Shown: positions 2,505 through 63,321 of the stretch, piece after piece
Layout of the letters: every line of letters starts with the position of its first letter
How positions within the stretch are numbered: the first letter of the stretch is position 1
NCBI GenBank assembly: GCA_030765235.1
Contig: JAVCCW010000018.1
Coordinates: 25,465 to 89,464 of the forward strand
DNA length: 64,000 nt
DNA from: Candidatus Gorgyraea atricola
GTDB lineage: Bacteria > Omnitrophota > Gorgyraeia > Gorgyraeales > Gorgyraeaceae
Direction of reading: 5' to 3'
Notes under the pieces: model-generated
Seen by the model: only the letters and a program-made list of their open reading frames with translations
What the model was told of the DNA's origin: nothing
Databases searched by the model: none
Translations under genes and position numbers: made by a program

Positions 2505-2547
2505 TCTGTTTGCCATGGGGGTTCAAAGGTGTTATAATCAAAATGAT

Positions 2548-19440: not shown

Positions 19441-19450
19441 CAAACCTCCT

Positions 19451-19490
19451 AAAGTAGACAAAACAGACAGTGTCTGTTTTGTCTACTTTA
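19451..19490. repeat. Palindrome family F copy 2
   Basis: aaagtagacaaaacagacagtgtctgttttgtctacttta. Confidence 0.85.
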
Positions 19491-20519
19491 GCCAAAGAAG
19501 ATCTTGGCGATGTTGTATAGTTCCATGTCAACAGTCTTTAGCTTGGCTACAGCAGCTTCTAATGAAACGCCCTTTACCTGGTTGCCTTGTAATGCAGCCA
19601 TCTTGCCATAATCCTTTTTTAGCACCAGCTCCATTGCTTTTATGCCGAAACGTGTGCCAAGCACTCTGTCAAAGGCAGTGGGCGTACCACCCCTTTGTAA
19701 GTGGCCAAGCACTGTGACTCTTGTTTCAAAACCTGTATTTTTCTCTATTGCTTCACCTAATGCATGGCCTATGCCGCCCAGGCGTATATGGCCAAACGCA
19801 TCTAACTTTTCCTCTTGCTTGACAAGTTTACCCTGCTTAAACTTCGCGCCTTCTGCCACTACAACAATGCTGAAGCTCTTGCCCCTAGCGTGGCGCTTCT
19901 TTAAAAGAGCGCATACCTCATCCATATCTATTGGAAGCTCTGGTATCAAAATAATATCAGCGCCTCCTGCTAATCCAGACTCTACAGCAATCCAGCCTGC
20001 GTGCCTGCCCATTACCTCGACTACCATGATCCTGTTATGTGACTCGGCTGTAGTGTGCAGCCTGTCAATGGCCTCAGTGGCAATATTTATTGCAGTATCA
20101 AACCCAAACGTTACATCTGTGCCTGAAAGATCATTGTCAATGGTCTTTGGCGCGCCAACTACACTCAGCCCTTCTTTGTGTAACTTTGATGCTACGCCAA
20201 GCGTATCCTCGCCGCCAATGACTATTAGCGCCTCCAGCCCCATTTTTTTAAAATTCGCTTTTACCTTTTCTACATCCCCTTGTTTTTTATAAGGATTTGT
20301 CCTTGAGGTGCCAAGTATTGTGCCGCCTTTTGGCAATATCCCAGAAACAGACTTAAGGTCTAATTTTTCAGTATTGTTTTCTACTAATCCTTTCCATCCA
20401 TTCTTTATACCTATTACTTCATACCCTTCTTTGAGCGCAAGCCTCACAACTGCCCTGATCACTGAATTTAACCCAGGACAATCCCCTCCTCCTGTTAATA
20501 CACCAACCCTCTTTGTCAT
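19488..20519 (-). CDS. pfkA: 6-phosphofructokinase
   Basis: MTKRVGVLTGGGDCPGLN...GGEDTLG...MGRHAGW. Confidence 0.9.
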   Translation of the reverse strand: MTKRVGVLTGGGDCPGLNSVIRAVVRLALKEGYEVIGIKNGWKGLVENNTEKLDLKSVSGILPKGGTILGTSRTNPYKKQGDVEKVKANFKKMGLEALIVIGGEDTLGVASKLHKEGLSVVGAPKTIDNDLSGTDVTFGFDTAINIATEAIDRLHTTAESHNRIMVVEVMGRHAGWIAVESGLAGGADIILIPELPIDMDEVCALLKKRHARGKSFSIVVVAEGAKFKQGKLVKQEEKLDAFGHIRLGGIGHALGEAIEKNTGFETRVTVLGHLQRGGTPTAFDRVLGTRFGIKAMELVLKKDYGKMAALQGNQVKGVSLEAAVAKLKTVDMELYNIAKIFFG

Positions 20520-20540: not shown

Positions 20541-20665
20541 AAATCCCAAATCCCAATAATACCAATACTACCAAATAAATCCCAATTTCAAAATCCCAAA
20601 CATGGTTTTGGATTTGGGATTTTGGATTTATTTGGGATTTGGTAGTATTTGGATTTTGGATTTTT
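20541..20665. repeat. Hairpin repeat family A copy 2 (about 125 bp, long inverted repeat)
   Basis: aaatcccaaatcccaataataccaatactaccaaataaatccc...catggttttggatttgggattttggatttatttgggatttggtagtatttgg. Confidence 0.8.
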
Positions 20666-26215: not shown

Positions 26216-26232
26216 AATAACTTCCTCTTCCT

Positions 26233-26264
26233 CTTGTAGGCCAGGTTTAAACCTGGCCTACAAG
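26233..26264. repeat. Palindrome family G copy 1 (TGTAGGCCAGGTTTAAACCTGGCCTACA)
   Basis: Perfect palindrome centred on GTTTAAAC. Confidence 0.85.
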
Positions 26265-26270
26265 AGGGGG

Positions 26271-33116: not shown

Positions 33117-33911
33117 TTATTTCTTCCTATATGCGTTGAGGAATGAGTCGCAGTAGAGCTGCTTTTCCATGAGTAGCTCTGCTGTTATCGCAGCGTCTAC
33201 TAGTTCTTTGTCTGTGGCGTCCATGATAGCTGCGTCAAGGCCGTTGGCTATTGCCATTGCTAGAAATGTCCTGTTAATGATGCTTTTACATTGAGAAGGC
33301 GCGCCCTGTGAAACATTGGAAAGGCCAAGTATGGTCTTTGGCGCGGGATCTGCGAGCATCTTTGACTCTCGTATAGTCCTTAGCACCTCTTTTGCATGCA
33401 CCTGCGCAACGTTTACAGGGAGTATCACAGCATCCAGGTATAGATCTGACAGGTTAATGCCATGCTCCATGGCAGATGCTACGATCTTCATGCCGAGCTC
33501 GAGCCTGCCTTCGGTATCCTTTGGTATGCCTGCTTTGTCCATGGTCAAGCCTATGACTGAGGCATTGTATTTTTTTGCTAGAGTAAACAGCGAATCCATT
33601 TTATCCTGGTTGGCGTTTACGGAATTTATTATGGGTTTTGATTTACATGCTGATAGACCGGCTTCCATTACATCTTTTTTTGTTGTATCAATCGCAAGTG
33701 GCGCATCGCTGACTTCGGTAATGGTTTTTACAAGCCACTCCATTGCCTCTTTTGGGTTGTCTGATGATGGGCCAACATTTACATCAAGCGCGCTTGCGCC
33801 AGCTGAAGTCTGCTTTTTCGCAAGGTCCTGTATTACAGATTTATCTTTTTTCTGTATTGCCTGCGCCACATCCTTAAACATCCCGTTGATTCGCTCACCG
33901 ATAATAAACAT
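33117..33911 (-). CDS. acsE: Methyltetrahydrofolate:corrinoid/iron-sulfur protein methyltransferase (pterin-binding)
   Basis: MFIIGERINGMFK...; Wood-Ljungdahl context with acsD, cooC and RACo. Confidence 0.85.
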   Translation of the reverse strand: MFIIGERINGMFKDVAQAIQKKDKSVIQDLAKKQTSAGASALDVNVGPSSDNPKEAMEWLVKTITEVSDAPLAIDTTKKDVMEAGLSACKSKPIINSVNANQDKMDSLFTLAKKYNASVIGLTMDKAGIPKDTEGRLELGMKIVASAMEHGINLSDLYLDAVILPVNVAQVHAKEVLRTIRESKMLADPAPKTILGLSNVSQGAPSQCKSIINRTFLAMAIANGLDAAIMDATDKELVDAAITAELLMEKQLYCDSFLNAYRKK

Positions 33912-33925
33912 GTTAAGCTCCTGTG

Positions 33926-34010
33926 TTCTGTGTAATGTGTAAGGTGTAAGGTGTAATGTAACCGGGATAGCTTGGTACATTACACATTAAACATTACACC
34001 TTACACAAGT
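33926..34010. repeat. Hairpin repeat family C (GGTGTAA heptamer units, inverted)
   Basis: tgtgtaatgtgtaaggtgtaaggtgtaatgta...tacattacacattaaacattacaccttacaca. Confidence 0.75.
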
Positions 34011-34947
34011 CCTGTATGATCTTTTTAGTCTCCTCAACCGCCCGAGGATGGTTCATGACAAGGATGTCTGAACCTGCATTGAGATACGCTACAGCAGTGG
34101 CTGTCTCATACAATGCACCCCTGTCTTTGCTAGGTCCCCAGTCTTTCGCAGCCTCGTCGCCAGTCTTTGCCTCTTTAGTACGCCAGACCTCTTGCCCCAC
34201 AAAATTTATGAGAGGCATTGAAAGCATCTTGTCGCCTGATAGACCAGCAAGCCGCGTCCTTTCCATTATTGAATAAGTGTATTCCAGGCCATAGCCCAGC
34301 GCGCCTGTTGCGTGATGAATCACTATTTTATCCTGCGGGAATTGCATATCGCAGATAAGTATGTTCAGCTGCTTTGCAATATTTATGTCAATCGGTGCCT
34401 CAGAAATAATAGCATGACCTCCGCTCAAGCACGCTGCGGTCAGGGTCTTGTAATTTTCCTGTGTCGCAATACCAAAAAGACAGTTTTTGCCTTTTGCAAC
34501 ATCTGTGCAATGTACCATTACGTCGCTATCCTTTTGTGCAGTCCCGCTGCCTATTACAATAAGCGGCACATCCACAGCCTTTAAGATGTTTTCCAGTGTC
34601 TTGCCGGCATCTTGCCCAGAGGCGTTTTTCGTATCCGGGTGCGCGCTTGCAAGGCGAAGACATATCAAATCTGCTGAGAATTTCTCTACACAGAGCTTTG
34701 CCCATGCAACTGGATCCTTTAACGCAGCGCCGAAATTAGCCTTTAAGTCCTCTGGCCACTCAGGCGGCTCCATATCCCACACCTCCATTGCCACCTTAGG
34801 GGAATTCGGACATTTATCCTCACCTTTTATGAAAAATATACCCGTCTCCCCACCAACAGTAACCCTTGTCCCTTGTCCCTTGTCACTTGTCACTCCCAGC
34901 GCAACCTCACTTATTGTGTCCTGCCATTTTTCAATTACCCTGTCCAT
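33994..34947 (-). CDS. acsD: Corrinoid iron-sulfur protein small subunit (AcsD/CdhD)
   Basis: TIM-barrel protein of about 317 aa; N-terminus carries the in-frame heptamer-encoded segment TSDKGQGTRV. Confidence 0.8.
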   Translation of the reverse strand: MDRVIEKWQDTISEVALGVTSDKGQGTRVTVGGETGIFFIKGEDKCPNSPKVAMEVWDMEPPEWPEDLKANFGAALKDPVAWAKLCVEKFSADLICLRLASAHPDTKNASGQDAGKTLENILKAVDVPLIVIGSGTAQKDSDVMVHCTDVAKGKNCLFGIATQENYKTLTAACLSGGHAIISEAPIDINIAKQLNILICDMQFPQDKIVIHHATGALGYGLEYTYSIMERTRLAGLSGDKMLSMPLINFVGQEVWRTKEAKTGDEAAKDWGPSKDRGALYETATAVAYLNAGSDILVMNHPRAVEETKKIIQDLCKV

Positions 34948-35657
34948 ACTGTCTCCTTAAGTTCAAATTCTATTGTCTCTGGTATTTTTTCACCTGTCTC
35001 ACTTATTTTTTGTATCTCTTCCTGAAAAGGAATATGACATTCTACAGTTAAGCCAGAATTATTTATTAGTTCCTGACTTTTCTTCTCAATAGTCCCTTTT
35101 GACTTATTTATAATGAGCGAGGCGCTTTTTACCTTTAGGCCAGCCTTTTTTGCAGTTTCGAATGCGTTTATAGCTGATCGTACACCAACTGCGGTTGTGT
35201 CGCTGACCAATAAAAGCTTATCTACGCGATCTGCTGTACGCCGGCTAAGGTGTTCCATGCCAGCTTCGTTGTCTATCACGATATATTTATAATTCTTACC
35301 GAGTTTTGACAGGTATTCTCTCAGGATATTGTTTATGGCGCAATAACAGCCAGGCCCTTCTGGTCTTCCCATAACAAGAAGGTCTATGCCTTCTCCTTCT
35401 GTAATTATCTCCTCCAGCCTCATGTTGAAAAGATCACTTTTGGAAAAACTTGCTGAAGAAGATTTTTTTGCCTCTTCGCGTATATCTGAAATGGTCTCGT
35501 TATATTCAAGTCCTAACGCTACATTGAGATTGGCATTCGGGTCAGCGTCAATTGCCAGTATTGGCCTATCTATTTTCAGAAGGCGCCTGATTAGTAACGC
35601 GCTAACTGTAGTCTTGCCAACCCCGCCTTTTCCAGCAATAGCTATTATGTATGGCAT
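34935..35657 (-). CDS. cooC: CO dehydrogenase maturation ATPase CooC/AcsF
   Basis: IAIAGKGGVGKTTVSA...AIDADPNANL. Confidence 0.9.
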   Translation of the reverse strand: MPYIIAIAGKGGVGKTTVSALLIRRLLKIDRPILAIDADPNANLNVALGLEYNETISDIREEAKKSSSASFSKSDLFNMRLEEIITEGEGIDLLVMGRPEGPGCYCAINNILREYLSKLGKNYKYIVIDNEAGMEHLSRRTADRVDKLLLVSDTTAVGVRSAINAFETAKKAGLKVKSASLIINKSKGTIEKKSQELINNSGLTVECHIPFQEEIQKISETGEKIPETIEFELKETVWTG

Positions 35658-35668
35658 TTGATATATTT

Positions 35669-35800
35669 TGTTGTGTGTTGTGAGGGTGAGTTATGGGTTG
35701 TGGGTCGAGTTGTGGGTTGTGAGTAGTGAGTTAAAACCCACAACTCATCCACACAACCCGACTCACAACTCACAACACACCCCCACCCTCACAACTCACA
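35669..35800. repeat. Hairpin repeat family B copy 1 (GGTTGTG/CACAACC heptamer-like units)
   Basis: ttgtgtgttgtgagggtgagttatgggttgtgggtcgagttgtgggttgtgag...cccacaactcatccacacaacccgactcacaactcacaacacacccccaccctcacaactcaca. Confidence 0.8.
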
Positions 35801-37706
35801 GCAGCCACTTTTTCACCGACGGGAACAGCTCTATGTCCGTGTGCGGCAAAAATAGCGCTGCGCTGTAATTATTCATAAAAGATGAATTCACGCTTAAGTC
35901 AAGGTATGTCATTTTATCAGCGATCAAATGAGCCTTATCCATTGCCTCGCTTGAAAGGATCGCCATCTTTGCCCCTGTTATCGAAGTATTGCCCAGAAAT
36001 TCAAATTTTGACTCTGGAAAATCTGGCAAGAGCCCAATGTTTATGGCTGAGCGTATGTCCAGTGCTGTACCAAGGCCGCCTGCAATAAATACGTGCTTTA
36101 AGTCAGACTTTTTATAGCCTGATTCTTTTAAAAGTACCTCGATGCCAGTATAGATGGCACCTTTTGAATGGATGATATTTTTGATATCGTTCTCATCGAT
36201 AATTATCTTGCCCGTGAGGACTACGGCCTTTACGCCATTCACCTCTTTTACCTTGCAGATCTTGTTGTCATTGATCCTGCCAGAGCGATCAATGATCCCG
36301 TGTTTTAGAAGCGCGCTAAGACAGCTTATTATTCCAGAACCACATATGCCTTTTGCAGGCGCATTGCCTATGGTCTTTACGCAGAGTTTGTTTTTCTTTA
36401 TGGATACATCTTCGATCGCGCCTTTCATTGCCCTGATACCTGAGGACAGGCCGCCGCCTTCAAAGCATGGGCCAGCAGATGTGGAACATGCCATGTAGTA
36501 TTCTTTGTTGCCCACAACCACTTCACCGTTTGTGCCCAGGTCAATAAAAAGCGACAGGTCTTTACTGCTATCCATGCCAGATGCCAAGACACCACTTATA
36601 ATGTCTCCGCCCACATAACTGCCTATTGAAGGCAGGCACGATAAAAGGCCGCGTGGATTTATTTTTATACCTGCTTCCGCGGCACGGATAACTGGCATAA
36701 AGTTTACAGCTGGTATATAGGGGTCTTTTCTTATGTATTCAGGATCTATCTTTAAGAGAAGATGCGTCATTGTTGTATTGCCTGCGCACATTACTGCTGT
36801 GATGTCATCGAGTGTTAGGCCGCGCTCCTTTGCCAGGTTATATACGAGCATGTTTACAGTATCTATTACTGCGTGGTGGAGTTTTTCAAGGCCTCGCCCT
36901 TCTTTTGCGTATACAATTCTTGAGATTACATCTTCGCCAAAATCGACCTGTGGGTTATAGCTTGCCTTTGCAGCCAGGACTTGTTGGGATTTTAGATCAA
37001 TGAGGTACGCGACTATGGTAGTGGTGCCGATATCAAGCGCTACGCCGAGATTTTTCGCTGAGCGACTGCCTGGCTCAACAAGCACTATTTCTGTGGTGCC
37101 GTTTCTGTTGCCAAGGGTTACTGTGACTTCCCAGTTACTTTCTCTTAGTAGTCGCGGGAGTTTTTTTATGTTTGCGAGTCCCATCTGCATGACAGGGATA
37201 TTTTTATCCTTTCGTATCTCTCTGAATAAGCGCTCTACATCGCCGCAATTATCATCAATGGAGGGTGGCGGGAGCTTTAGAGATAGTTTTGTGGAAAGCG
37301 GGCCATGCTTGAATACCTTTGCCCTTGTCTTGTGGTGCTCTTCTTCTATTTTTTCAGCTGGCGTATATAGGCCTGCGAGCCGCTTTGTCTTTGTCTCTTC
37401 TGTAAGCACCTCTATGTCGCCTAATCTTGATTCCTCAGGGATCAGGACTTCCAGATCAGACTGGGGTATGGTCCTGCAGGCAAGCACATAGCCTTTCTTG
37501 CGTTCTTTCTCGGAAATTCTACCGCTATATTCAGTATCATACTTACCTTTTTTAACAATAACCTTGCACCTACCGCACACACCCTCTCCCCCACAGCTAT
37601 TATATATATGTATCCCAGCTTTAATAGATGCAGTAAGTAGATCCGTGCCCTTATCTACACTAATAGCCTTCTTCTCAGGCAGAAATGTAATCTTAATATC
37701 CTTCAT
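35796..37706 (-). CDS. Reductive activator of corrinoid protein (RACo/AcsV): N-terminal 2Fe-2S ferredoxin + ASKHA ATPase
   Basis: CGGEGVCGRCK ferredoxin motif; 636 aa. Confidence 0.85.
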   Translation of the reverse strand: MKDIKITFLPEKKAISVDKGTDLLTASIKAGIHIYNSCGGEGVCGRCKVIVKKGKYDTEYSGRISEKERKKGYVLACRTIPQSDLEVLIPEESRLGDIEVLTEETKTKRLAGLYTPAEKIEEEHHKTRAKVFKHGPLSTKLSLKLPPPSIDDNCGDVERLFREIRKDKNIPVMQMGLANIKKLPRLLRESNWEVTVTLGNRNGTTEIVLVEPGSRSAKNLGVALDIGTTTIVAYLIDLKSQQVLAAKASYNPQVDFGEDVISRIVYAKEGRGLEKLHHAVIDTVNMLVYNLAKERGLTLDDITAVMCAGNTTMTHLLLKIDPEYIRKDPYIPAVNFMPVIRAAEAGIKINPRGLLSCLPSIGSYVGGDIISGVLASGMDSSKDLSLFIDLGTNGEVVVGNKEYYMACSTSAGPCFEGGGLSSGIRAMKGAIEDVSIKKNKLCVKTIGNAPAKGICGSGIISCLSALLKHGIIDRSGRINDNKICKVKEVNGVKAVVLTGKIIIDENDIKNIIHSKGAIYTGIEVLLKESGYKKSDLKHVFIAGGLGTALDIRSAINIGLLPDFPESKFEFLGNTSITGAKMAILSSEAMDKAHLIADKMTYLDLSVNSSFMNNYSAALFLPHTDIELFPSVKKWLL

Positions 37707-37764
37707 AATAGCTATGATTTTAACACGCGGGTTGGGCGATGGTCAAGGGAAATGAGGTTGGCGT

Positions 37765-37989
37765 AAAAGCTAAAAGCAGACCTGTGCGCTCAGGTGAAAA
37801 TTTCCCCCTTGCGGGGTCGTCTTTTATTTTGCATTTTGGTGGGGCCGAAAAAACTTACCCGACACCATAGGTGTCGGGGTCGAACAGTTTTCGACCTTTT
37901 TGTCTCATAAAATGTGACGGAATAAACCACCAAAACACAAAATAAAAGACTAAATTTTCAATTCGCTCCCAGGTCTGCTTTTAGCTTTT
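37765..37989. mobile_element. MITE-like element copy 1 (225 bp) with perfect 20-bp terminal inverted repeats AAAAGCTAAAAGCAGACCTG
   Basis: aaaagctaaaagcagacctg...caggtctgcttttagctttt; the interior holds several hairpins and no ORF. Confidence 0.75.
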
Positions 37990-38072
37990 AAGATTCCCTG
38001 TTTAAAAAATCTGTGCTTGCAATCTGATTAAATCTAACCTGGTTAGAAATGTCAAGAAATCTTAAAAATTTT

Positions 38073-38435
38073 TTAATTTTTAAAAAGCAAAGAGACTAAA
38101 GATGATAATGAAAATAGTGTTATCGCCGTACTGAAAGTCAAATGCCACGATATGTTTAAATTCTTGCTATTTTGTGTCGAAGTATCGCTGATTTGTTTTT
38201 GTTCAACATGATAAGCTTGCGCTGTGCCGCTACCACTAGAATTAACACGAATATCATTATCTTTCCATATACTTTTTGGGCCTGTCATGCTTTGAGATGT
38301 TTGGATTGTAATCATCAATTTTGAGATAGAAAATCGAAGATAGAGTAGAGAGAGAACAACAAATATAGCCATAATTACTGTAATTATTTTTCGATTTTTC
38401 ACATTTTTCTCCTTTTTTATTTTCTCAGCTAACAA
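38073..38435 (-). CDS. AT-rich hypothetical small membrane protein, 120 aa
   Basis: Two hydrophobic segments; low GC; sits between the two MITE copies. Confidence 0.45.
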   Translation of the reverse strand: MLAEKIKKEKNVKNRKIITVIMAIFVVLSLLYLRFSISKLMITIQTSQSMTGPKSIWKDNDIRVNSSGSGTAQAYHVEQKQISDTSTQNSKNLNISWHLTFSTAITLFSLSSLVSLLFKN

Positions 38436-38578
38436 TTAATAGGCGAATCTACTATTCTTTGCTATTAGTAGCAGCTTAGAACGTCTTATTCTATAGCCGA
38501 GCATACTGTCTATCGCGACTTATATAGTATTATGTTACCACTTAAAGCAAGAGAAGACAATTGTTTAAATTGCACGAT

Positions 38579-38850
38579 AAAAGCTAAAAGGAAGACCTGG
38601 TAGCGAATTTGAAAATTTAGTCTTTTATGTAGCATTTTGGCGGTTTCTATGGCTCATTATATGAGCCCAAAAGGCCGAAAACTGTTCGACACCCACACCT
38701 ATGGTGTGGGTGAAGTTTTTTCGGTCCCGCCAAAATGCGGAATAAAAGACGACCTGTTTCCGAGCGGAGTCCCGCCCTTTCGTAGAAAGGGCGGGGCGAA
38801 GCGAGGAGGGAAATTTTCATCTGAGCGAACAGGTCTTCCTTTTAGCTTTT
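38579..38850. mobile_element. MITE-like element copy 2 (272 bp), inverted orientation, diverged, with a ~50-bp internal insertion
   Basis: aaaagctaaaaggaagacctg...caggtcttccttttagctttt; the interior is homologous to copy 1 (shared ccgaaaaaactt...caccataggtg...cgaacagttttcg). Flanked by cacgat/atcgtg. Confidence 0.75.
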
Positions 38851-38892
38851 ATCGTGTATGGCGCTACATTTTAGTGTAGGATTAGACAGAAA

Positions 38893-38921
38893 AAGGCCTC
38901 GCGAGTGGGCGAGGCCTTTTG
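38893..38921 (-). terminator. Rho-independent terminator-like hairpin downstream of the lipoprotein gene
   Basis: ggcctcgcgagtgggcgaggcc followed by a T-run on the minus strand. Confidence 0.6.
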
Positions 38922-38953
38922 GATTCCCGCTTGCGCGGGAATGACATTTCTGG

Positions 38954-39871: not shown

Positions 39872-39920
39872 AGCCGAGGTCCAGCCTCGGCTTTTGAAAA
39901 AGCCGAGGCTGGACCTCGGC
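39872..39920. repeat. Palindrome family H copy 1 (CCGAGGTCCAGCCTCGGCTTTTGAAAAAGCCGAGGCTGGACCTCGG, nested hairpins)
   Basis: Perfect palindrome directly downstream of the lepA stop. Confidence 0.85.
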
Positions 39921-41722: not shown

Positions 41723-41766
41723 CCGAGGTCCAGCCTCGGCTTTTGAAAAAGCCGAGGCTGGACCTC
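41723..41766. repeat. Palindrome family H copy 2
   Basis: ccgaggtccagcctcggcttttgaaaaagccgaggctggacctc. Confidence 0.85.
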
Positions 41767-46598: not shown

Positions 46599-47377
46599 GT
46601 AAGCCTCCTAACAAAACTACCTACTTTTTTTATCAAATCTTTTTTGCCTATATTCTTCTCGATCACCTTTATGATAGCGCTCCCGACTATTACGCCATCA
46701 GCTATTTTTGATATTGATTTTACCTGGTCGGGCCTGGAAATGCCAAAGCCCACGCATACAGGCTTCCTGGTCACTCTCTTTATTGCCCTGAGGCTGGCTG
46801 AGAGCTCTTTTGGTAATTCTCTTCTCGCGCCTGTTGTGCCTGTAAGCGAGACATAATAGATAAAGCCGGTTGAGGCGTCTGCGATTTTTTTGAGTCGCTC
46901 TCTTGAGCTTGTGGGTGCTGCAAGATGTATTATTGACAGGTTTTTCTTTTTTGCAATGCGGCGCAGTTCCTGTGACTCTTCAGGCGGCAGGTCTGGGATT
47001 ATTACGCCGTCGACCCCGCATGATTTTGCCTTTTGCACAAACTTTTCCAGGCCATAGTGGTGTATAAGATTATAGTAAGTTAAAAATGCTATTGGAATCT
47101 GCGTTTGTAATCGGACATTTCTAACCAGGTTAGAAACAGAGTTTATGGTTGCTTTGCGCTTTATGGCGCGTTCGGATGAGCGCTGGATAGTAGGGCCATC
47201 TGCAAGCGGATCTGAAAATGGCACGCCTAATTCGATTATATCAGCGCCATTTTTCTCCAATTCAAATATGAGCTTCTTTGTAATAGCCAGCGATGGATCG
47301 CCAGCCATTATAAAGGCCGCAAATGCCTTCTTGCGTTTTTTCTTTAGTTCTTTGAATTTCTTATCTATACGATTCAT
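46586..47377 (-). CDS. trpA: Tryptophan synthase alpha chain
   Basis: FIMAGDPSL...ELGVPFSDPLADGP. Confidence 0.92.
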   Translation of the reverse strand: MNRIDKKFKELKKKRKKAFAAFIMAGDPSLAITKKLIFELEKNGADIIELGVPFSDPLADGPTIQRSSERAIKRKATINSVSNLVRNVRLQTQIPIAFLTYYNLIHHYGLEKFVQKAKSCGVDGVIIPDLPPEESQELRRIAKKKNLSIIHLAAPTSSRERLKKIADASTGFIYYVSLTGTTGARRELPKELSASLRAIKRVTRKPVCVGFGISRPDQVKSISKIADGVIVGSAIIKVIEKNIGKKDLIKKVGSFVRRLTCML

Positions 47378-47391
47378 AATTCTCACAACGT

Positions 47392-47435
47392 CCCTACATT
47401 TGTAGACCAGGTTTAAACCTGGTCTACAAATGTAG
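47392..47435. repeat. Palindrome family G copy 3 (compensatory variant TGTAGACCAGGTTTAAACCTGGTCTACA)
   Basis: cctacatttgtagaccaggtttaaacctggtctacaaatgtagg. Confidence 0.85.
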
Positions 47436-48605
47436 GCCCTTGCCTTTAATGATATCTATATCCTTGTCGCCTCTACCGGATAGGCAGATGGCTATGATTT
47501 TATTTTTGTTCAGCTTCGGCGCTAGTTTTTTTACTGCATAGTATATGGCATGGCTTGGCTCAAGGGCTGGGATAATGCCTTCTGTCTCAGATAACATTCT
47601 AAAGCCTTCTAAACCTTCTTTATCATTTACAGCCACATACTGGGCGCGGCCAATGTCTTTGTAATACGAATGCTCCGGGCCTACGCCTGGGTAGTCCAGG
47701 CCTGCGGAGATCGAATGCGCGACTTTTACCTGGCCGTCTTTATCCTGTAACAAATAGCTCTTACTTCCATGCAAAACCCCGGGTTTACCTTTACAGAGTG
47801 CTGCACCGTGTTTGCCGCTTGCTAAACCTAAGCCGCCTGCTTCTACGCCGATAAATTTCACCCTTGTCTTAAAAAACGTGTGGAAAAATCCTATGGAATT
47901 GCTTCCTCCGCCAACGCATGCCACCATGTAATCTGGAAGTCGGCCTTCATATTTTAAGATCTGTTTCTTTGTCTCTTTGCCAATAACTGCCTGAAAATCA
48001 CGAACCATTGCAGGATATGGGTGTGGGCCTACTACAGAGCCTATTATATAATGAGTTGTACGAACATTTGTAACCCAGTCTCTTATTGCTTCATTGGTCG
48101 CGTCTTTAAGAGTCTTGCTTCCTGAATAAACAGGTATTACCTTTGTGCCAAGAAGCTTCATTTTTAATACATTCAACGCTTGACGCTCTATGTCCTCTAT
48201 GCCCATATATACTTCGCAAGGAAGCCCAAACATAGCTGCAGCAGTAGCTGTGGCAACACCATGCTGGCCAGCGCCTGTCTCAGCTATAATGCGCGACTTG
48301 CCCATCTTTACAGCCAAAAGCACCTGGCCAAGCGTATTATTTATCTTATGCGCGCCTGTATGCAGCAGATCCTCGCGTTTAAGATAGATTCTTGTGCCTG
48401 TTTTTCTGGACAGGTTCTTGGCAAAATAAAGCGGCGTGGGCCGACCTGCATAGACCTCCAGCAATTCACCTAATTCACGCTTAAACTTAGCATCTTTAAG
48501 AGCCTTTTTATATTCCCTCTCCAGCTCCTCAAGCGCTACCATAAGCGTCTCAGGCACAAACTTCCCACCAAATCCCCTGAATTTACCATTCTTATCAGGT
48601 AGCAT
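47424..48605 (-). CDS. trpB: Tryptophan synthase beta chain
   Basis: [12 protein letters not shown]-lysine motif. Confidence 0.95.
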
Positions 48606-48699
48606 ACATTTCTCCCTTATATAGCTTATAAATTATATATTATAAAAGGTGAGGTGTCAAGTCCTGTCATTCCCGCGAAAGCGGGAATCCACATAAAAA

Positions 48700-48727: not shown

Positions 48728-48757
48728 TGTAATCTGCTAAAATCTAACCTGGTTAGA

Positions 48758-53559: not shown

Positions 53560-53583
53560 GTCGCTTCAGCCCCTCCTCTGTCA

Positions 53584-53645
53584 GACCTGGCAAGGCTGGA
53601 CCTCGGCTTTTTTAAAAGCCGAGGTCCAGCCTTGCCAGGTCTGCT
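53584..53645. repeat. Palindrome family H copy 3 (variant centre TTTTTTAAAA, longer arms)
   Basis: ctggcaaggctggacctcggcttttttaaaagccgaggtccagccttgccag. Confidence 0.85.
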
Positions 53646-54817: not shown

Positions 54818-54823
54818 AAGATA

Positions 54824-54939
54824 AATCCCAAATTCAAATACTACCAAATCCCAAATAAATCCAAAATCCCAAAGCATGTTTGGGATTTAGAAATTGGGAT
54901 TTATTTGGTAGTATTGGTATTATTGGGATTTGGGATTTT
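54824..54939. repeat. Hairpin repeat family A copy 4
   Basis: aaatcccaaattcaaatactaccaaatcccaaataaatccaaaatcccaaagcatgtttgggatttagaaattgggatttatttggtagtattggtattattgggatttgggatttt. Confidence 0.8.
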
Positions 54940-56275
54940 ACTGACATAGCTCCTTAAGATATTTTGGTATGCCTGAGGCCTCTTTTGGTCCCACCAGCAC
55001 CTTCCAGCCTGACGCGTCTTCGAGTTTTCCGCTCAAGATAGAGGCATATCCCGGGATGATAATATTTTTATGCGAGACTGCTTTTTCAGTCTCGAATTTT
55101 TTCATTGTCTCGGCTATCACCTCAGGCGTGAATTTCTCAGCTGCCCATGCTGTCAATACGCTCATACCCTCTGAATCTGTCACAAGTAAATAAGACGGGA
55201 TCTTACTTGCCTCGATCTCAGGCGAAACAGTATAAAAGGTAAGCGAAAAATTGGTCGTCACCATGACAGGTGAATTTTCATTGACCTGACCAAAGGCATA
55301 GAGTTTCGGTTCGACTGTAACCGGCTTTTGCGGGTCAGTGTAGATATTTTGGCGAAGCGTAATAATAGGAAGCAACACCTCTTTATCCAGAGAATCAAGC
55401 ACTATTAAGCCCGCGTATTTTGCTATCAGCGTACATGCCTCTTGTACTAATTTATATTTATCGCTTTGTTTTATAACTCTTACTAGAGGGTAACCAAAGA
55501 CCCTGTGGCTTTTCTTCAGGCTCAACCTTCTGATGTGCGTAAAATCATTCAAGGTTTGATTTAATATATCAGAGTCTGGGTCAAGCATTAACTCCTGCAC
55601 TCCTAATGATGCTGCTTCCTGGGAAAGTTTGTCAAGCTCTTCCAATCCCTTTGCTTTTAATGTAAGCGCTGCTTTGTGGGTCTTTGCGATCTGACACATG
55701 TCTTTTAAATTCGCGCTGGTCGCGGCGTATATAAGGGGTTTTCTGTCAGCGCATTTTTTCAGGGCCTGTTCTATTGTCTTTGGATCATCGCTTGCCAGGA
55801 CCAGGGGCTTTTTTGAATTCGCGATTATTTTATCCAGGGCGTTTGCAAATTTTTCAGGAGAAGCGCTTTTATTGACCAGGGCTATCATATCAATAACAAT
55901 ATGCTGGCCAATTCGCTCAAAGCCCATTTCTTCTATAGCCTTGACTCTTTGCAAGAGATCTGAGTCAGATAGCGTATCTTCGACACTGATTGCTATGGGA
56001 GTTTGGTGATAAAAGGTCTTCTCGTGCCTGAAAAGCACTGTCTCGCCGCCTGTTTCAACCTTAGCATCTCCAGAACCCAGCGATATAGTTGCAATAGGCG
56101 GCTTTGACGCAGCATCAAGCGCAGCTTTTGCTTCCTCTGTCACATCAGGACAATCATCCAGTGACGCCTTTTTCATAGCCAGCTTCATTGCAAAAGCAAG
56201 ACAAGTAGGCGAACCACATTTCTTGCAGTTTGTTTTTGGTAGCAACTTATATATATCTAAACCCGATAAAGCCAT
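54938..56275 (-). CDS. acsC: Corrinoid iron-sulfur protein large subunit (AcsC/CdhE)
   Basis: MALSGLDIYKLLPKTNCKKCGSPTCLAFAMKLA with a GGAGAG ribosome-binding site upstream; C-terminal B12-binding domain. Confidence 0.88.
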   Translation of the reverse strand: MALSGLDIYKLLPKTNCKKCGSPTCLAFAMKLAMKKASLDDCPDVTEEAKAALDAASKPPIATISLGSGDAKVETGGETVLFRHEKTFYHQTPIAISVEDTLSDSDLLQRVKAIEEMGFERIGQHIVIDMIALVNKSASPEKFANALDKIIANSKKPLVLASDDPKTIEQALKKCADRKPLIYAATSANLKDMCQIAKTHKAALTLKAKGLEELDKLSQEAASLGVQELMLDPDSDILNQTLNDFTHIRRLSLKKSHRVFGYPLVRVIKQSDKYKLVQEACTLIAKYAGLIVLDSLDKEVLLPIITLRQNIYTDPQKPVTVEPKLYAFGQVNENSPVMVTTNFSLTFYTVSPEIEASKIPSYLLVTDSEGMSVLTAWAAEKFTPEVIAETMKKFETEKAVSHKNIIIPGYASILSGKLEDASGWKVLVGPKEASGIPKYLKELCQ

Positions 56276-56296
56276 TAATCTCTCCTTCCGCGTGCC

Positions 56297-56383
56297 CCGT
56301 TCCAAAATCTCTGATTTTGGAACGGGGCGTAGTTCCGCGTCTAAAGTAGACAAAACAGTCAGTGACTGTTTTGTCTACTTTAG
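56297..56383. repeat. Two adjacent hairpins between acsB and acsC: a CCCCGTTCCAAA hairpin and palindrome family F copy 3
   Basis: gtgccccgttccaaaatctctgattttggaacggggc followed by ctaaagtagacaaaacagtcagtgactgttttgtctactttag. Confidence 0.8.
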
Positions 56384-56406
56384 CTTCCGCGTAAGTTCCG
56401 CGATTC

Positions 56407-58584
56407 TCACATTACCGCTTCCATTGTTAGTGCCGGATGACCGACCTTTTCCAGATGCGGCAATAACTTTTCCATGTCTGTAGCAACGGTCTCGTCAGCT
56501 ATTTTATTTATAAAATCTGGATCACCCAACTCTTCGCATCTCTTTTTTAATTTATCAGATAGAACCTCTTTTAATTCCTTAGGCATCCATACGACTCTTT
56601 TGAGCCCGCCTTCCGCTGAAATGAATTTCTTGCTGGCAATGTACAGTCTTCCAACACCCATGAAACCAGGTGTTTGCTGGCCTCCGCCTATAGTTCCCGC
56701 CAATGTAGAAAATCCCATACCAGCTGGCGTCGGGCCTGCGTATTCTCTATTTACCACCATAAAACCATTTGCCTCAGGCAATATCGCGATTATACATTCA
56801 AAGCACCCGCAGCTTGTCTCTGGCGAATCCATGATAGAATAACCGCAGAATCTATCCAGGCTGCGATTAGATTTTTGCGCAACAGCTTCATTTACACCTG
56901 TCCACTCACCTTTAACAGGGTCAAGACACTGGCCTTTTTTAATAGGTTGATTTGGCCCTGCAGGATTCAGCTCATTAGATGCCTTTGCGTCCAACCAGTT
57001 ATAAGCGCCGCAAAGGCCCAGCCTCTCAGGCTTTATTATGCATACATGATTTGGCGCAAAACTCTGACAAAGCGTACATGTCCAGAATAGATCTACGCTC
57101 TCATCTGTCATGCCAGCGACACGCGCATCCCTTTCATCATAGGCCTTTTGTGCCCCTTCTATATTTTTTTCAATATCTTCCTGCTTTGTATATACGGTGA
57201 CCTGTACTTTATCAGCTATTGCGCTAAACACATCATGAAACCTTGCATGCAGAATCACGCCAAAATGTTTTAGCTTAAGGCCTTTGTTTTTGGCATCTTT
57301 CGAGATCCTTATCCAGCACATGTCTCTCTGGCCCATATGAAAAATACCCATGGCCTCGTTCAAGAAACTATGTATCTGTCTCTCGAGTATTGGCTCAAAA
57401 TCCTTTTGCATCTTTCTGCCTGCTACCTCGACAACAATACCAAGAGGTATGGCCTTGCCTTCTTTGATATCATCGATTTCTGGTCCAATGACCTCGATCT
57501 TCCCATCCTCTACTTTAGCCGCATCTACCATTTTGACAAACTCGAATGCATCGGAGTATTTTCCGCCGAACTGCGCATACATCTGCTCGCGCCGAACTCT
57601 CTCGCCCTCGAATGCCGGAGAATAAGAAACTGGTATGGGGATCTCTGAGACCTTTAGTTTTATGCCTCGAAGTTCAATGGCCGCGGGTACTATTTTTTTA
57701 TGATCCAATTCTCTTATCACATGTTCGTATGTGCAGATACCTGTTGGCCTGATCTCAGGTATATTTGTATCAGCTATTATTGGAAAACCCATGTTTATGG
57801 CGCCTGCGCCTGTTGCGTATTTTACATCATCCAACTCATCCAAGACCATTCCAAACGCAAATACTCTGTCTTTACAATATTTTAGGCATTTCAGTGCCTC
57901 GCCTTTTCTGTGGCCGCCAAATGTAAGCGCGCCGCGAATAGCCCAGTTTAAAGGATATATGGCGCTCAGGGTATCTCTGCCGTAAGGCACTATATAGGTA
58001 TCCCAGCCCATTTCTACTTTTTCTTCTAGTAACTGGTCGATTATACTCCTACCGTTGACATTGCTGCCGACAAAGGTCATTATGCTGCGTTTTTGTAGCT
58101 CGCGTACAATATAAACAGCTGTCTTATTGTCTGGCGCAGCGCCTAAGATCGCTGCAAATCCAGGCATCCTGCCATCCACAAGCTGAATGCCAAGCGTACG
58201 CAGGATCGTATCTGAGAAAAATCCATTGCAGTCCTTTTGCGGTTCCTGATTATACAGGTAGCGCAATGCCATTATGATCTCTTCGCATAGTAACGCAGCT
58301 ATACCTGAATCCAGAGTATCTCCTAAATATGGCAGCCATATCTTCTGCGTGGGCTCATCGTGAAGCAGTGTCTTTGAAAAATCCAGGACCTCTTTGGCGC
58401 CGCTCAAGGTCTGCACTTCTTTTCCAAGCAGCGCGTATGCCATAGGAAAATAAAAAGCTGTCTCTGGAAACTTGACCTCACATGACTCGCCCTTCTCTTT
58501 TATAGCCTTTAATAGAAAATCTTCTGCTTCTTTATAAATTTTCTGCGCGCCTCTAATAGCAGCCGATGCAATGATCTTCGACAT
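56407..58584 (-). CDS. acsB: Acetyl-CoA synthase catalytic subunit (AcsB/CdhC, A-cluster)
   Basis: 725 aa; CGCFEC A-cluster motif. Confidence 0.92.
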   Translation of the reverse strand: MSKIIASAAIRGAQKIYKEAEDFLLKAIKEKGESCEVKFPETAFYFPMAYALLGKEVQTLSGAKEVLDFSKTLLHDEPTQKIWLPYLGDTLDSGIAALLCEEIIMALRYLYNQEPQKDCNGFFSDTILRTLGIQLVDGRMPGFAAILGAAPDNKTAVYIVRELQKRSIMTFVGSNVNGRSIIDQLLEEKVEMGWDTYIVPYGRDTLSAIYPLNWAIRGALTFGGHRKGEALKCLKYCKDRVFAFGMVLDELDDVKYATGAGAINMGFPIIADTNIPEIRPTGICTYEHVIRELDHKKIVPAAIELRGIKLKVSEIPIPVSYSPAFEGERVRREQMYAQFGGKYSDAFEFVKMVDAAKVEDGKIEVIGPEIDDIKEGKAIPLGIVVEVAGRKMQKDFEPILERQIHSFLNEAMGIFHMGQRDMCWIRISKDAKNKGLKLKHFGVILHARFHDVFSAIADKVQVTVYTKQEDIEKNIEGAQKAYDERDARVAGMTDESVDLFWTCTLCQSFAPNHVCIIKPERLGLCGAYNWLDAKASNELNPAGPNQPIKKGQCLDPVKGEWTGVNEAVAQKSNRSLDRFCGYSIMDSPETSCGCFECIIAILPEANGFMVVNREYAGPTPAGMGFSTLAGTIGGGQQTPGFMGVGRLYIASKKFISAEGGLKRVVWMPKELKEVLSDKLKKRCEELGDPDFINKIADETVATDMEKLLPHLEKVGHPALTMEAVM

Positions 58585-58596
58585 ATCTCCTCCTGA

Positions 58597-59886
58597 TTAT
58601 AATGTCATTGTTGTTTCTTTGAATTCCTTTTGCTTAAAGCCCTGCTTTGAGTTCTTTACAATATTGACTATCTTGCCATAATTAAAATGGTCTTCGAGGA
58701 TCGTATCTTTTATTGCGCTTACATCTACTTTATTCTTGATCAAGGTACCCAGGATACCGATTGTTTCAACTGCGTTTAGCGTTATGGCGCCTACAATAAT
58801 GCCGTTACGCAAAACTATTTTCTTGTAGATCTTTCTATTCTCGTCTTTTTTTATCAGTTCTTCGTATATATCTTTCTTGGGCTTTGTGATCCCTATTGAG
58901 ATCACAGGCAGGCCAAAAAACTCCAAAGAATTCATGGCAAGAGAACCTTCATAAGATTCTTTCTCACCTGTCATATTTAAACCAGCGATCCTGCCTTGTT
59001 CGCAGGCAGCTGGCCAGATCGCGTTTATCGAGTTCTCTTCTAGAGCAATGTCATGCGCCTCAGCAACATCACCGGCTGCAAAGATATCTTTGTTATCCGT
59101 CTTTAAAAATCCGTCCGCTAATATCCCCCAGTTTGTCTTTATTCCCGCGTCTTTTGCTATAGCTATATTTGGGCTGACCCCTTTACCTATAATAACCAGC
59201 TCGCAGGGATATTCAGATCTATTGTCGATGATCAAATTTTTAACAGAATCGCTTCCTTTGATCTCGGTTGCAGCGCTTCCAGTCTTGATCTTTATGCCTT
59301 TTTCTTCTATATGTGCCTGCATTATGTCAGCAGAACCTTTGTCTATTATTTGGGAAAGGATCTGAGGCGACCGCACAAATACTGTGACCTCTTTACCTCT
59401 ATTCTTAAGCGCGTATGCAGCTCGCAGACCCACAAGACCGCCACCCAGTACTGCGACCTGCTTGACCCTGCCCAGCATGGATTGCATTTCCAAGGCATGC
59501 TCTATAGTCCTTAAAGGAAATACACCTTTTTTGTCAACGCCTTTTACGCTTTCCATCTTTGCGGACGCGCCTGTTGCAATAAGAAGCTTGTCGAATTTTA
59601 TCTTTTCTTTGTTCGCGAGAGTGATCTCTTTTTTGTCAGTGTCTATTTTTTCTGCCCTGACCCCTAAAACGGTATCGACCTTGTTTTCCTTGAAGAAATT
59701 TTCAGACCGGTACCATATTTTTTTCTCGTCAATAGTCCCTGCCAGAAAATATGAGATCAGGCATCTGGAGTAAAGAGGTGTTTTTTCGTCAGATAAAACT
59801 ACTATCTTGGATTTTTTATCCTTTGAGCGAATGGCCTCTATCGCGTTTATGCCAGCAGCGCTGGAGCCAATGATCACGTATTGCAT
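58597..59886 (-). CDS. FAD-dependent pyridine nucleotide-disulfide oxidoreductase (CODH-associated)
   Basis: VIIGSSAAGINA and VAVLGGGLVGLRAA dinucleotide-binding motifs. Confidence 0.8.
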   Translation of the reverse strand: MQYVIIGSSAAGINAIEAIRSKDKKSKIVVLSDEKTPLYSRCLISYFLAGTIDEKKIWYRSENFFKENKVDTVLGVRAEKIDTDKKEITLANKEKIKFDKLLIATGASAKMESVKGVDKKGVFPLRTIEHALEMQSMLGRVKQVAVLGGGLVGLRAAYALKNRGKEVTVFVRSPQILSQIIDKGSADIMQAHIEEKGIKIKTGSAATEIKGSDSVKNLIIDNRSEYPCELVIIGKGVSPNIAIAKDAGIKTNWGILADGFLKTDNKDIFAAGDVAEAHDIALEENSINAIWPAACEQGRIAGLNMTGEKESYEGSLAMNSLEFFGLPVISIGITKPKKDIYEELIKKDENRKIYKKIVLRNGIIVGAITLNAVETIGILGTLIKNKVDVSAIKDTILEDHFNYGKIVNIVKNSKQGFKQKEFKETTMTL

Positions 59887-60395
59887 AATTTTTTCTTAAA
59901 CTCCTTTTCTGTGCCTAAGAATAACGCGGCTGTCTGGCATGCCTCTACGCATGCGGGTATATCCCTATCAGGACAAAGGTCGCACTTTACAATGATCTTA
60001 TCTTGTTTCTGCCTTGAAAGTGCGCCAAATGGACAGCTCATTATGCACATCCAGCAGCCCACGCATTTTTCTTCATCATGTTTTGTCTGACCGGTCTTCT
60101 TGTCTTTATACATCGCACTAGACATGCACGCTGCTACGCACGGCGCGTCCTCGCAGTGATGACAGCCTGTTGAAATAACTATACCCCATTCCAAATTGCC
60201 AGCTTCTGTAATTTTAGGAAATTTGGAACGGGGCACGTCTCCCTCGATTGATTCAGCCTTGCGCCTTTTTATTGGCAGCGGCCTTTCTTTTATTGCCTCA
60301 TCAAGCTTTTTGGATTTAGAATGCTCCACTGCGCATGCAATCTCGCATGCCCTGCAGCCTATGCATTTTTTAATATCACAATATATTTTTTTCAT
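59874..60395 (-). CDS. cooF: 4Fe-4S ferredoxin, CooF-like
   Basis: Several CxxCxxCxxxC(P) motifs. Confidence 0.85.
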   Translation of the reverse strand: MKKIYCDIKKCIGCRACEIACAVEHSKSKKLDEAIKERPLPIKRRKAESIEGDVPRSKFPKITEAGNLEWGIVISTGCHHCEDAPCVAACMSSAMYKDKKTGQTKHDEEKCVGCWMCIMSCPFGALSRQKQDKIIVKCDLCPDRDIPACVEACQTAALFLGTEKEFKKKLCNT

Positions 60396-60399
60396 AACC

Positions 60400-62316: not shown

Positions 62317-62325
62317 CTTGCCTCC

Positions 62326-63192
62326 TTATAATCCAGCTGCATCCAATACTAAAGGTACTTTCTTATCCCAGCCAATAGGCATGATGTGAATACCATGGCA
62401 CATGGGTTTTAGTTCTTTTATTAGCCGTGCTGCTATCTCTATTGATTTAGCGCTTCTATCCTGCGCCTTGTCCATCTCCTGAATGAGATCGTCAGGCACA
62501 AACACGCCGCTCACATTTTTATTCATGAATTTTGCCATGCCTGCTGATTTTAAAAGCACAATGCCTGCAATAATCGTGGTTTTTAAATGCTTTGACGCGT
62601 CTAAAAATTTCTTGAACAGTTCTATATCGTAAATCGCCTGGGTCTGGAAAAACTGCGCGCCAGCTTCGATCTTCTTCTCCATCTTTATAACTTCTGGCTC
62701 TATAGGATCTGCGCCTGGATTCACAACCGCGCCTGTGCAGAATTTTGGAGCGCCCTTTAATTCCTTTCCTGCCATGTCTTTTCCTGACTCGAGCGTCCTG
62801 ATCGCATCTAAAAGCTGCACTGAATCCATGTCAAACACAGGCTTTGCATCAGGATGATCACCTAATGCAGGATGATCACCTGTTAGCGCCAACACATTCT
62901 CTATGCCCAGGACCGCTGCTGAGAGAAGATCAGACTGAAGAGCAAGCCGGTTCCTATCCCTACATGTCATCTGAAATACTGGCTCTAAGCCTTGCTCGAT
63001 CAAAAGCTTGCATATAGCCAAAGACCCCACGCGCATCACTGAGCTCTGTAGATCAGTGACATTTATCGCATCCACTTTACCTTTAATAAGCTCTGCGTCT
63101 TTTAACACCTCTTCAATATCCGTACCCTTAGGTGGCCCTATCTCAGAGGTAATTATGAACTTCTCTGTCTTGATTCTTTCGCATAAAGACAT
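62326..63192 (-). CDS. metF: Methylenetetrahydrofolate reductase
   Basis: TIM-barrel MTHFR, 288 aa. Confidence 0.8.
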   Translation of the reverse strand: MSLCERIKTEKFIITSEIGPPKGTDIEEVLKDAELIKGKVDAINVTDLQSSVMRVGSLAICKLLIEQGLEPVFQMTCRDRNRLALQSDLLSAAVLGIENVLALTGDHPALGDHPDAKPVFDMDSVQLLDAIRTLESGKDMAGKELKGAPKFCTGAVVNPGADPIEPEVIKMEKKIEAGAQFFQTQAIYDIELFKKFLDASKHLKTTIIAGIVLLKSAGMAKFMNKNVSGVFVPDDLIQEMDKAQDRSAKSIEIAARLIKELKPMCHGIHIMPIGWDKKVPLVLDAAGL

Positions 63193-63204
63193 GTTGCTCC
63201 TTTT

Positions 63205-63320: not shown

Positions 63321-63321
63321 A

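Follow-up and report, generated by a model that had tools for sequence, protein, structure and literature searches.

In the 64-kb stretch of Candidatus Gorgyraea atricola DNA analysed here (positions 1–64000, hereafter the window), two related palindromic elements, copy 1 and copy 2, were found on either side of a small AT-rich open reading frame (ORF) close to the gene RACo. It is fairly probable that they are two separately inserted copies of a low-copy, non-autonomous palindromic repeat (family A) of the Gorgyraea lineage within the Omnitrophota, which is bounded by terminal inverted repeats (TIRs) and would count as a MITE (miniature inverted-repeat transposable element) when that term is taken broadly, most like the ERIC and Correia elements. 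The MITE features seen are a size of 227 and 274 nt, a non-coding sequence, perfect inverted repeats of 21–27 bp and dispersed copies.

RACo (35796–37706) lies on the minus strand, as do cooC, acsD and acsE of the same operon, and the element pair is therefore located upstream of the RACo start codon and not 3' of the operon. The preliminary description of this DNA, which had placed the pair directly downstream of the RACo/cooC/acsD/acsE operon, has to be corrected in this respect. On its other side, the pair is bordered by the terminator of an operon with lepA, lepB and a lipoprotein gene, so that it occupies the gap between this terminator and the RACo promoter.

The two copies in the window

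The elements and their parts are as follows.

37764..37990, plus strand: copy 1, palindromic element of family A, 227 nt if the T and A at its flanks are counted
37764..37789, unstranded: left TIR of copy 1, pairs with 37965–37990, outer 21 bp perfect
37965..37990, unstranded: right TIR of copy 1, pairs with 37764–37789
38578..38851, minus strand: copy 2, family-A element, 274 nt, inverted with respect to copy 1
38573..38599, unstranded: inner-side TIR of copy 2, 27 bp perfect with 38830–38856, includes the flank CACGA and TA
38830..38856, unstranded: outer-side TIR of copy 2, includes TA and the mirrored flank TCGTG
38755..38807, unstranded: extra hairpin segment of copy-2-type elements only, 53 nt versus 8 nt in copy 1, stem at 38770–38794

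Copy 1 begins with AAAAGCTAAAAGCAGACCTG at 37765–37784 and ends with the exact reverse complement at 37970–37989. The perfect 20-bp TIRs that had been described for it were seen directly and extend to 21 bp when the flanking T and A are counted, or to 26 nt at 92% identity. Allowing for up to three mismatches, AAAAGCTAAAAGCAGACCTG occurs at two sites in the window, compared to 0.05 expected by chance. Three independent metagenome assemblies (L027, L095 and L096) contain copy 1 together with its flanks at 100% identity. In copy 2, the perfect inverted repeat comprises 27 bp (CACGATAAAAGCTAAAAGGAAGACCTG), of which five bases lie outside the sequence shared with copy 1.

Copy 1 (plus strand) and copy 2 (minus strand) can be aligned over their full length, with 84.3% identity over 178 nt and 90.9% over 44 nt, and the similarity is thus not confined to the ends. 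This bears out the view of copy 2 as a diverged, inverted homolog with an insertion of about 50 bp, the copies being 84–91% identical and the segment in question measuring 53 nt as opposed to 8 nt. The additional sequence consists of a perfect 11-bp hairpin (CCCGCCCTTTC-GTA-GAAAGGGCGGG) plus shoulders, and it recurs in two copies outside the window (on the related loci L089 and L090, see below) with one compensatory G-C to A-U change.

Both copies are predicted to fold very stably, copy 1 with -104.6 kcal/mol (z = -12.2) and copy 2 with -131.1 kcal/mol (z = -12.7), and none of 200 shuffled sequences folded as well as either of them, in agreement with the strongly structured interiors noted before. 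Spurious ORFs of 38–80 aa, some of them called by gene callers, are present in copies 1 and 2 and belong to no Pfam family. The earlier statement that there is no ORF accordingly stands as far as the elements are non-coding, but is not literally correct.

Further copies and dispersal

Relatives of the element were found with the spurious 80-aa ORF of copy 2 as a protein query, which led to P0121 and P0122 on L089 and L090. L090, from a different metagenome, contains a solo element of the copy-2 type that is 90% identical to copy 2, extra hairpin included, and lies directly upstream of a TTGCAA-17-TATAAT promoter and a glycosyltransferase (GT2) gene. Adjoining it is a member of family B, an unrelated palindrome of about 200–215 nt that occurs in two metagenomes (L082 at about 395–600, L090 at about 105–290) and has no Rfam match.

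L089 stems from a sister sample of that of L027 and matches the window identically from 38434 into copy 2. All four mismatches of its element lie in the last third, followed by a different flank, a promoter and cvpA, and this points to a third near-identical copy beside cvpA in the same population. The cvpA locus joined to copy 2 on L089 does not occur in the window, and L089 itself would be either a true recombinant or a chimera assembled through the shared core. The short-read assemblies end at 38172 (L096), 38349 (L027) and 38357 (L095), L089 starts at 38434, and the AT-rich 5' part of the small ORF (38349–38434) is an assembly break point. In practical terms, these repeats break short-read assemblies at this locus.

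Family A was found in four genomic contexts. The copies in the window lie upstream of RACo and downstream of the lepB operon, that of L089 lies upstream of cvpA and that of L090 upstream of the GT2 gene. The element is absent between the same flanking genes in the related loci L084–88, L091 and L092/93. Because of the copies in the L089 and L090 contexts and the absence from these three relatives, the element is, as far as the data show, a real, dispersed, low-copy repeat. In the preliminary description, a likeness limited to the 20-bp ends and a lack of further copies had been named as the outcome speaking against it; what was found is homology over the full length and copies on L089 and L090.

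A search with nhmmer and a four-copy profile revealed no further copies in the window and about 190 kb of related loci, the only extra match being a patch of 28–38 nt at 5323–5361. Matches to the TIR pattern (AAAAGCTAAAAG N1-3 AGACCTG) in genome, metagenome and viral contigs (26, 47 and 7, respectively) were dismissed as chance, as they were single stretches of 20–24 nt with neither interior similarity nor a partner end. Scans of viral contigs with interior motifs and blastn searches against plasmid and phage collections yielded nothing.

Insertion sites and mirrored termini

Copy 1, copy 2 and the L090 copy are each flanked by TA at both ends, and so is the L089 copy at the one end for which the flank is known. 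Outside the TA, the flanks are CACGA and TCGTG for copy 2 and CTTGT and ACAAG for the L090 copy, and removal of the elements would leave the 12-bp palindromes CACGATATCGTG (CACGA-TA-TCGTG) and CTTGTTAACAAG (CTTGT-TA-ACAAG), respectively. Copy 1 has no mirrored flanks. From these flanks we infer insertion at the central TA of short palindromes, which would fit TA-targeting transposases. Alternatively, the mirrored flanks may simply reflect a longer, covarying terminal helix, a reading with which the data are compatible as well. The two flanks of copy 2 belong together, which suggests that copy 2 was inserted alone.

The termini vary between copies and are nevertheless mirrored exactly within each of them (copy 1, AAAAGCTAAAAG-CAGACCTG; copy 2, AAAAGCTAAAAGGAAGACCTG; L090, TTAAGCCAAAAGTAGAGGCCTG), the L090 copy possessing a perfect terminal repeat of 22 bp plus the flank. 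The inner helices are invariant among copies. The best explanation for such exact mirroring of variable termini would be that the arms of a DNA hairpin correct one another or that pairing is required, and not an RNA function. Mirrored yet variable termini present a small puzzle as to how such repeats are recognised and maintained.

Internal anatomy and the terminator-like centre

The order of parts is the same in every copy. A terminal helix of 21–27 bp is followed by a conserved asymmetric internal loop, the helix GAAAATTT, a side hairpin of 8 nt or 53 nt, a 24-bp helix (GTCTTTTAT...TTTTGGYGG) and a non-palindromic centre. This centre is composed of an A-run, hairpin A (CCCGACACC-ATA-GGTGTCGGG), hairpin B (GTCGAA-CAGTT-TTCGAC), a T-run and a small third hairpin, and the module is common to copy 1, copy 2, L089 and L090. 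Its positions in the window are given below.

37844..37903, unstranded: central module of copy 1, with the A-run at 37846–37853, hairpin A at 37858–37878, hairpin B at 37879–37896 and the T-run at 37897–37902
38673..38712, unstranded: hairpins B and A in the centre of copy 2; together with the AAGTTTTTTC behind it, hairpin A is terminator-like on the plus strand

In copy 1, the consensus of an intrinsic terminator is matched by CCCGACACCTATGGTGTCGGG and TAAGTTTTTT on the minus strand and by GGGGTCGAACAGTTTTCGACCTT and TTTGTCTCAT on the plus strand. In both copy 1 and L090, one strand matches through hairpin A and a subsequent TTTTTT and the opposite strand through hairpin B and a subsequent T-run; in copy 2 and L089, there is a match for hairpin A as well. 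Judged by these matches, the central module probably resembles a bidirectional intrinsic terminator. In copy 1, L089 and L090, the hairpin-A terminator is co-directional with the promoter and gene that follow it (terminator first, then promoter), whereas copy 2 is turned the other way with respect to the small ORF. Each of the four copies lies 17–60 nt from a promoter-like -35 box, which in the case of copy 2 was read by eye.

According to the proposed mechanism, the conserved centre, with its A-run, two GC-rich hairpins and T-run, would act as a bidirectional intrinsic terminator, and the element would block read-through into the adjacent promoter in either orientation in which it lands. Copy 1, for example, would end the transcript of the small ORF before the RACo promoter. 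Since read-through would be stopped in either orientation, insertions might be tolerated or mildly useful. If the centre does terminate both ways, family A would provide a clear case of a selfish repeat that is tolerated for insulating neighbouring transcription units.

Conservation of pairing

Covariation was assessed on a four-sequence alignment that comprises three independent sequences only. In this alignment, 96.4% of the cells pair and 15 of 96 pairs are changed on both sides, as compared to 5.9 ± 1.8 in shuffles (0 of 500 at this level) and 0–3 with slid partners. Nine of the double-changed pairs are located in the terminal helix, two in hairpin A and one each in the extra hairpin, hairpin C and the 24-bp helix. 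G-U cells (seven) and A-C cells (six) are equally common, and the terminal helices are without any G-U; the pairing signal is thus not strand-specific and is suggestive of conservation at the DNA level rather than of selection on one RNA strand.

These data also bear on the proposal, raised in the preliminary description, that the elements could carry a small RNA. An element that encodes or is part of a structured RNA, be it a small RNA in several copies or a leader or trailer acting in cis and kept by selection on RNA folding, would agree with the very stable folds and with the number of pairs maintained through changes on both sides, which exceeds the shuffled and slid controls, although this covariation comes from only three independent sequences, neither strand is favoured by the G-U and A-C counts, and the perfect Watson-Crick pairing of the terminal helices in every copy points to the DNA. 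A closing helix that varies while internal loops and inner helices remain invariant is known from many RNAs, and three of the four copies share their orientation relative to the downstream gene; however, none of the promoter-like sites is positioned such that it would drive the element, and the terminator-like hairpins, which lie in the centre and not at the ends, would truncate transcripts arriving from either side. Searches of Rfam 15 with family A gave no match even at E values of up to 10 except for generic long-hairpin miRNA models that scored far below threshold, the best being a plant miRNA hairpin model with 33 bits versus a threshold of 180; family B and a third palindrome of the window (element C, see below) matched no Rfam family either. 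All in all, an RNA function is unlikely, and the suggestion of a small RNA could not be upheld. Among specific candidates, 6S RNA was dropped since its model did not match, and a retron since the partner gene is missing.

A second alternative takes the pairing as a property of DNA and regards the element as a structure-specified site, i.e., a folded single-strand hairpin that is recognised by its shape, as in attC, REP/RAYT or single-strand origins, and is moved or used by a recombinase or HUH enzyme and not by a DDE transposase. In line with this, the terminal helix preserves its pairing and not its sequence, stems are perfectly Watson-Crick paired without strand bias, and the mirrored flanks are specific for each copy. 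Family B behaves alike, its cores in L082 and L090 being 92.5% identical while the termini are different but mirrored. On the other hand, attC cores (RYYYAAC...GTTRRRY) are absent from copies 1 and 2, and L090 shows the reverse arrangement (GTTAAGC...GCTTAAC). attC sites measure about 57–141 nt, and the 227–274 nt of family A are beyond the usual sizes of both attC and REP. The copies are also not arrayed in one orientation, and neither an integrase or RAYT gene nor a HUH gene was detected in the window. We consider such a site distinctly unlikely; its attC and REP versions were rejected on core motifs and size.

The gap upstream of RACo and the bracketed ORF

The borders of the gap and the ORF inside it are listed here.

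37717..37746, minus strand: RACo promoter, TTGACC, 18-nt spacer, TAAAAT, with TG upstream of the -10 box
38073..38402, minus strand: AT-rich small ORF, 109 aa from a GTG start after AAGGAG or 120 aa from a TTG start
38891..38920, minus strand: intrinsic terminator that ends the lepA-lepB-glycine-zipper lipoprotein operon and delimits the variable gap opposite the RACo promoter

The RACo promoter lies at a distance of 17 nt from copy 1's edge, and 10 nt separate its end from the ATG. It is kept in relatives without a family-A element (L084, L091 and L092) and, on the evidence of these relatives, is native and no part of the element. The lepA-lepB-glycine-zipper lipoprotein operon is encoded on the minus strand, and the ortholog of its terminator is present in L092 and L091. 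Orthologous loci were fetched via close RACo orthologues, and their content between terminator and promoter compares as follows.

L092/L093 (RACo 84%): without an insert; the lipoprotein gene and terminator are followed after about 45 nt by the RACo promoter
L084–88 (RACo 92%): a 537-aa HATPase_c protein and a 1057-aa protein in the gap (L084 2926–7900)
L091 (RACo 90%): genes of 414, 102 and 1588 aa in the gap (L091 3516–9935)
L082/83 (RACo 94%): another gene (L082 2–217) and a family-B palindrome of about 215 nt exactly at the position of copy 1
This window: copy 2, the AT-rich ORF of 109/120 aa and copy 1

L084–88, L091 and L082 thus hold three other, unrelated inserts. Since the content differs in each relative, the gap between terminator and promoter is, as judged from these loci, a hypervariable insertion hot spot with different cargo in every relative examined. 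The repeats mark this hot spot and sit right at the promoter of a Wood-Ljungdahl accessory operon. As for the alternative cargo genes of the relatives, PADLOC assigned no defence family; the 1057-aa protein of L084 has a weak match to MgsA_C, and the genes of 414, 102 and 1588 aa in L091 belong to no family.

The product of the small ORF (MDP8230161.1, a hypothetical protein of Ca. Gorgyraea atricola) forms a singleton cluster, carries hydrophobic segments at both ends and has no Pfam or PADLOC family. Its gene has a GC content of about 0.29–0.37, compared to about 0.45 in the neighbours, and is cargo or a neighbour and not part of the element.

The arrangement had been interpreted as a composite element bracketing the ORF. 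In this case copy 2, the small ORF and copy 1 would form a single transposon that was mobilised via its outer ends and inserted as a unit. The whole 1.09-kb block does stand where terminator and promoter are separated by only some 45 nt in L092 (84% RACo identity), TA adjoins each of the inverted outer ends, and the bracketed ORF is AT-rich and a singleton. MITE-bounded composite units are also known in other bacteria. However, copies occur solo elsewhere (L090 and the right side of L089), and the two copies here are only about 84% identical. The flanks argue for separate insertions as well: those of copy 2 pair with each other (CACGA-TA-TCGTG), as in the solo L090 copy, and would have been contiguous before insertion, whereas the outer flanks of the pair (GGCG-TA and TA-TCGTG) form no such site. 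A 44-nt segment within the block (38005–38048) is furthermore found again in L082, where it occupies the corresponding place upstream of RACo; this point is weakened because its motif TCTAACCWGGTTAGA is a short dispersed palindrome that is also found elsewhere in the window. Taken together, movement as one unit is quite improbable, and in view of the solo copies and the self-pairing flanks of copy 2 the composite interpretation was abandoned in favour of two separate insertions.

Mobility and weight of the evidence

The repeat would be moved in trans by a TA-targeting transposase encoded elsewhere, of the IS630/Tc1-mariner type with which the TA flanks are consistent, and would have a preference for the TA in the middle of short palindromes. 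Pfam scans of 49 ORFs of the window, which together with the genes identified by synteny represent essentially all of its long ORFs, detected no transposase, integrase or HUH domain, and the earlier statement that the window lacks a transposase was thereby confirmed. An AAA_22 protein at 2485–3360 was read from its sequence as ExeA-like.

Several observations weigh against a transposed MITE-like repeat. As TA is self-complementary, a TA duplication is indistinguishable from a TIR that is longer by 1–2 bp, and no clean empty site is available among the loci of the relatives because the intervening spacer differs in each of them. In contrast to classical MITEs, conservation between copies is lowest in the terminal repeats, which are nevertheless perfectly mirrored within each copy, and the 9 of 15 double-changed pairs that fall into the terminal helix would fit selection for pairing better than sequence-specific binding of a transposase. 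The search for an autonomous element with the same ends was negative for the window, for about 190 kb of related loci and for the TIR-scan matches of genome, metagenome and viral collections. The copy number looks very low, with two copies in 64 kb, and a profile of the spurious ORF searched against 1.84 billion representative proteins gave one real cluster (P0122); the other four matches were long proteins with several short matched stretches and were discarded as not real. The terminator function, finally, is a consensus match only.

A more far-reaching idea combines several of these strands. Families A and B might be mobile DNA hairpins, specified by structure and not by end sequence, that target short palindromes just upstream of promoters, homing to the TA in the middle of these, with arms kept complementary via a hairpin intermediate, and that deliver a bidirectional terminator or insulator as a portable transcription-unit boundary in compact Omnitrophota genomes. 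This is offered as speculation and would have to be called unlikely at present.

Genomic setting and other repeats

The RACo protein of the window shows 100% identity to a Ca. Gorgyraea atricola protein encoded on a 153-kb contig. Ca. Gorgyraea has been described as a genus of metagenome-assembled genomes from Ace Lake that encodes the Wood-Ljungdahl pathway (PMC8542988); transposases and mobile elements are not mentioned in this description. A full-text literature search revealed no description of mobile small repeats in Omnitrophota. Nearly every gene of the window is on the minus strand, and the Wood-Ljungdahl genes are organised in two blocks. The first is RACo-cooC-acsD-acsE (33117–37706), and the second (54938–63888) comprises CdhD/FeS protein, ACS/CODH beta, an NAD(P) oxidoreductase, ferredoxin, a CooS-like Prismane protein, MTHFR and FolD. 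The -10 boxes of RACo (window 37707–37746) and of the L090 glycosyltransferase (L090 618–654) lie 7–10 nt from the start codons and no Shine-Dalgarno sequence is present; for this reason, the mRNAs of both genes are probably leaderless or near-leaderless.

The lineage is rich in small repeats, with family A, family B, the nested element C and several short palindromes, and the genome is unusually rich in intergenic palindromes. Element C (5320–5563) has 28-nt arms at 5354–5381 and 5536–5563 and a predicted folding energy of -163.6 kcal/mol (z -12). It is located directly downstream of the RNase III gene (5582–6304, minus strand) and upstream of a gene for a 442-aa protein without a Pfam family, and the position of a giant hairpin beside rnc is suggestive. 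A 38-nt patch (5324–5361) resembles family A, and the inner 100 nt (5436–5535) are 89% identical to L092 17375–17474, which makes element C look nested.

A perfect palindrome of about 40–60 nt of the type AAAAGCCGAGG(C)TGGACCTCGGCTTTT is present in three copies (39873–39920, 41725–41766 and 53582–53643) between co-oriented genes such as lepA and lepB, and may represent a REP-like or bidirectional-terminator family. The palindrome TCTAACCWGGTTAGA is found at gene ends (38035–38050, 47119–47134 and 48737–48752), and the hairpin TCATTCCCGCG-N-CGCGGGAATCC beside terminators (38925–38950 and 48666–48690). Further intergenic palindromic or degenerate repeats lie at 19449–19491 and 56341–56383, at 20546–20642 and 54823–54938, at 33929–34007, at 12944–13055, and at 26230–26267 and 47393–47436; the sequences of these families are CTAAAGTAGACAAAACAG..., CCAAATCCCAAAT..., TGTGTAAGGTGTAAGG..., AGGTTACGGAAGG... 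and ...ACCTGGTCTAC....

Comparison with known systems

Composite units bounded by MITEs are known in bacteria as integron mobilisation units and TIME-COMP. As in these, two inverted small TIR elements bracket a gene upstream of RACo; in contrast to them, the copies are diverged (84%), the flanks favour independent insertions and the copies found elsewhere are solo.

Correia elements (CREE/NEMIS) of Neisseria have a length of 100–155 bp, hundreds of copies and conserved 26-bp TIRs. Family A resembles them in being small, TIR-bounded, TA-flanked and adjacent to promoters and in folding into hairpins when transcribed, and Correia elements have been reported to affect the expression of neighbouring genes (PMC10969869). 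It differs from them in that the TIR sequence is not conserved between copies and that outward promoters or an IHF site are not demonstrated.

MITEs may cluster and nest, and terminator-like SPRITE elements have been described as well (PMC10969869). Like the small repeats with terminator hairpins reported there, family A is dispersed and bunched or nested with other families, as illustrated by its position beside family B in L090. A sequence relation to these repeats is lacking, and the module of family A is bidirectional and placed inside long inverted-repeat arms.

ERIC-type repeats form stem-loops with terminal TA and TA target duplications (PMC2759123). ERIC/RU-1 and YPAL/RU-2 of Enterobacteria (100–170+ nt) are, like family A, intergenic imperfect palindromes with stable stem-loops and with TA at the termini and insertion sites (PMC2759123). 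They likewise occur in size variants that arise from internal insertions, comparable to the extra hairpin of copy 2, and in lineage-dependent copy numbers (PMC10969869). Family A shares no sequence similarity with them, belongs to a host of another phylum, is longer (227–274 nt) and apparently far lower in copy number. What further sets it apart from ERIC and YPAL are termini that vary and still stay mirrored, and a central, terminator-like module of two hairpins.

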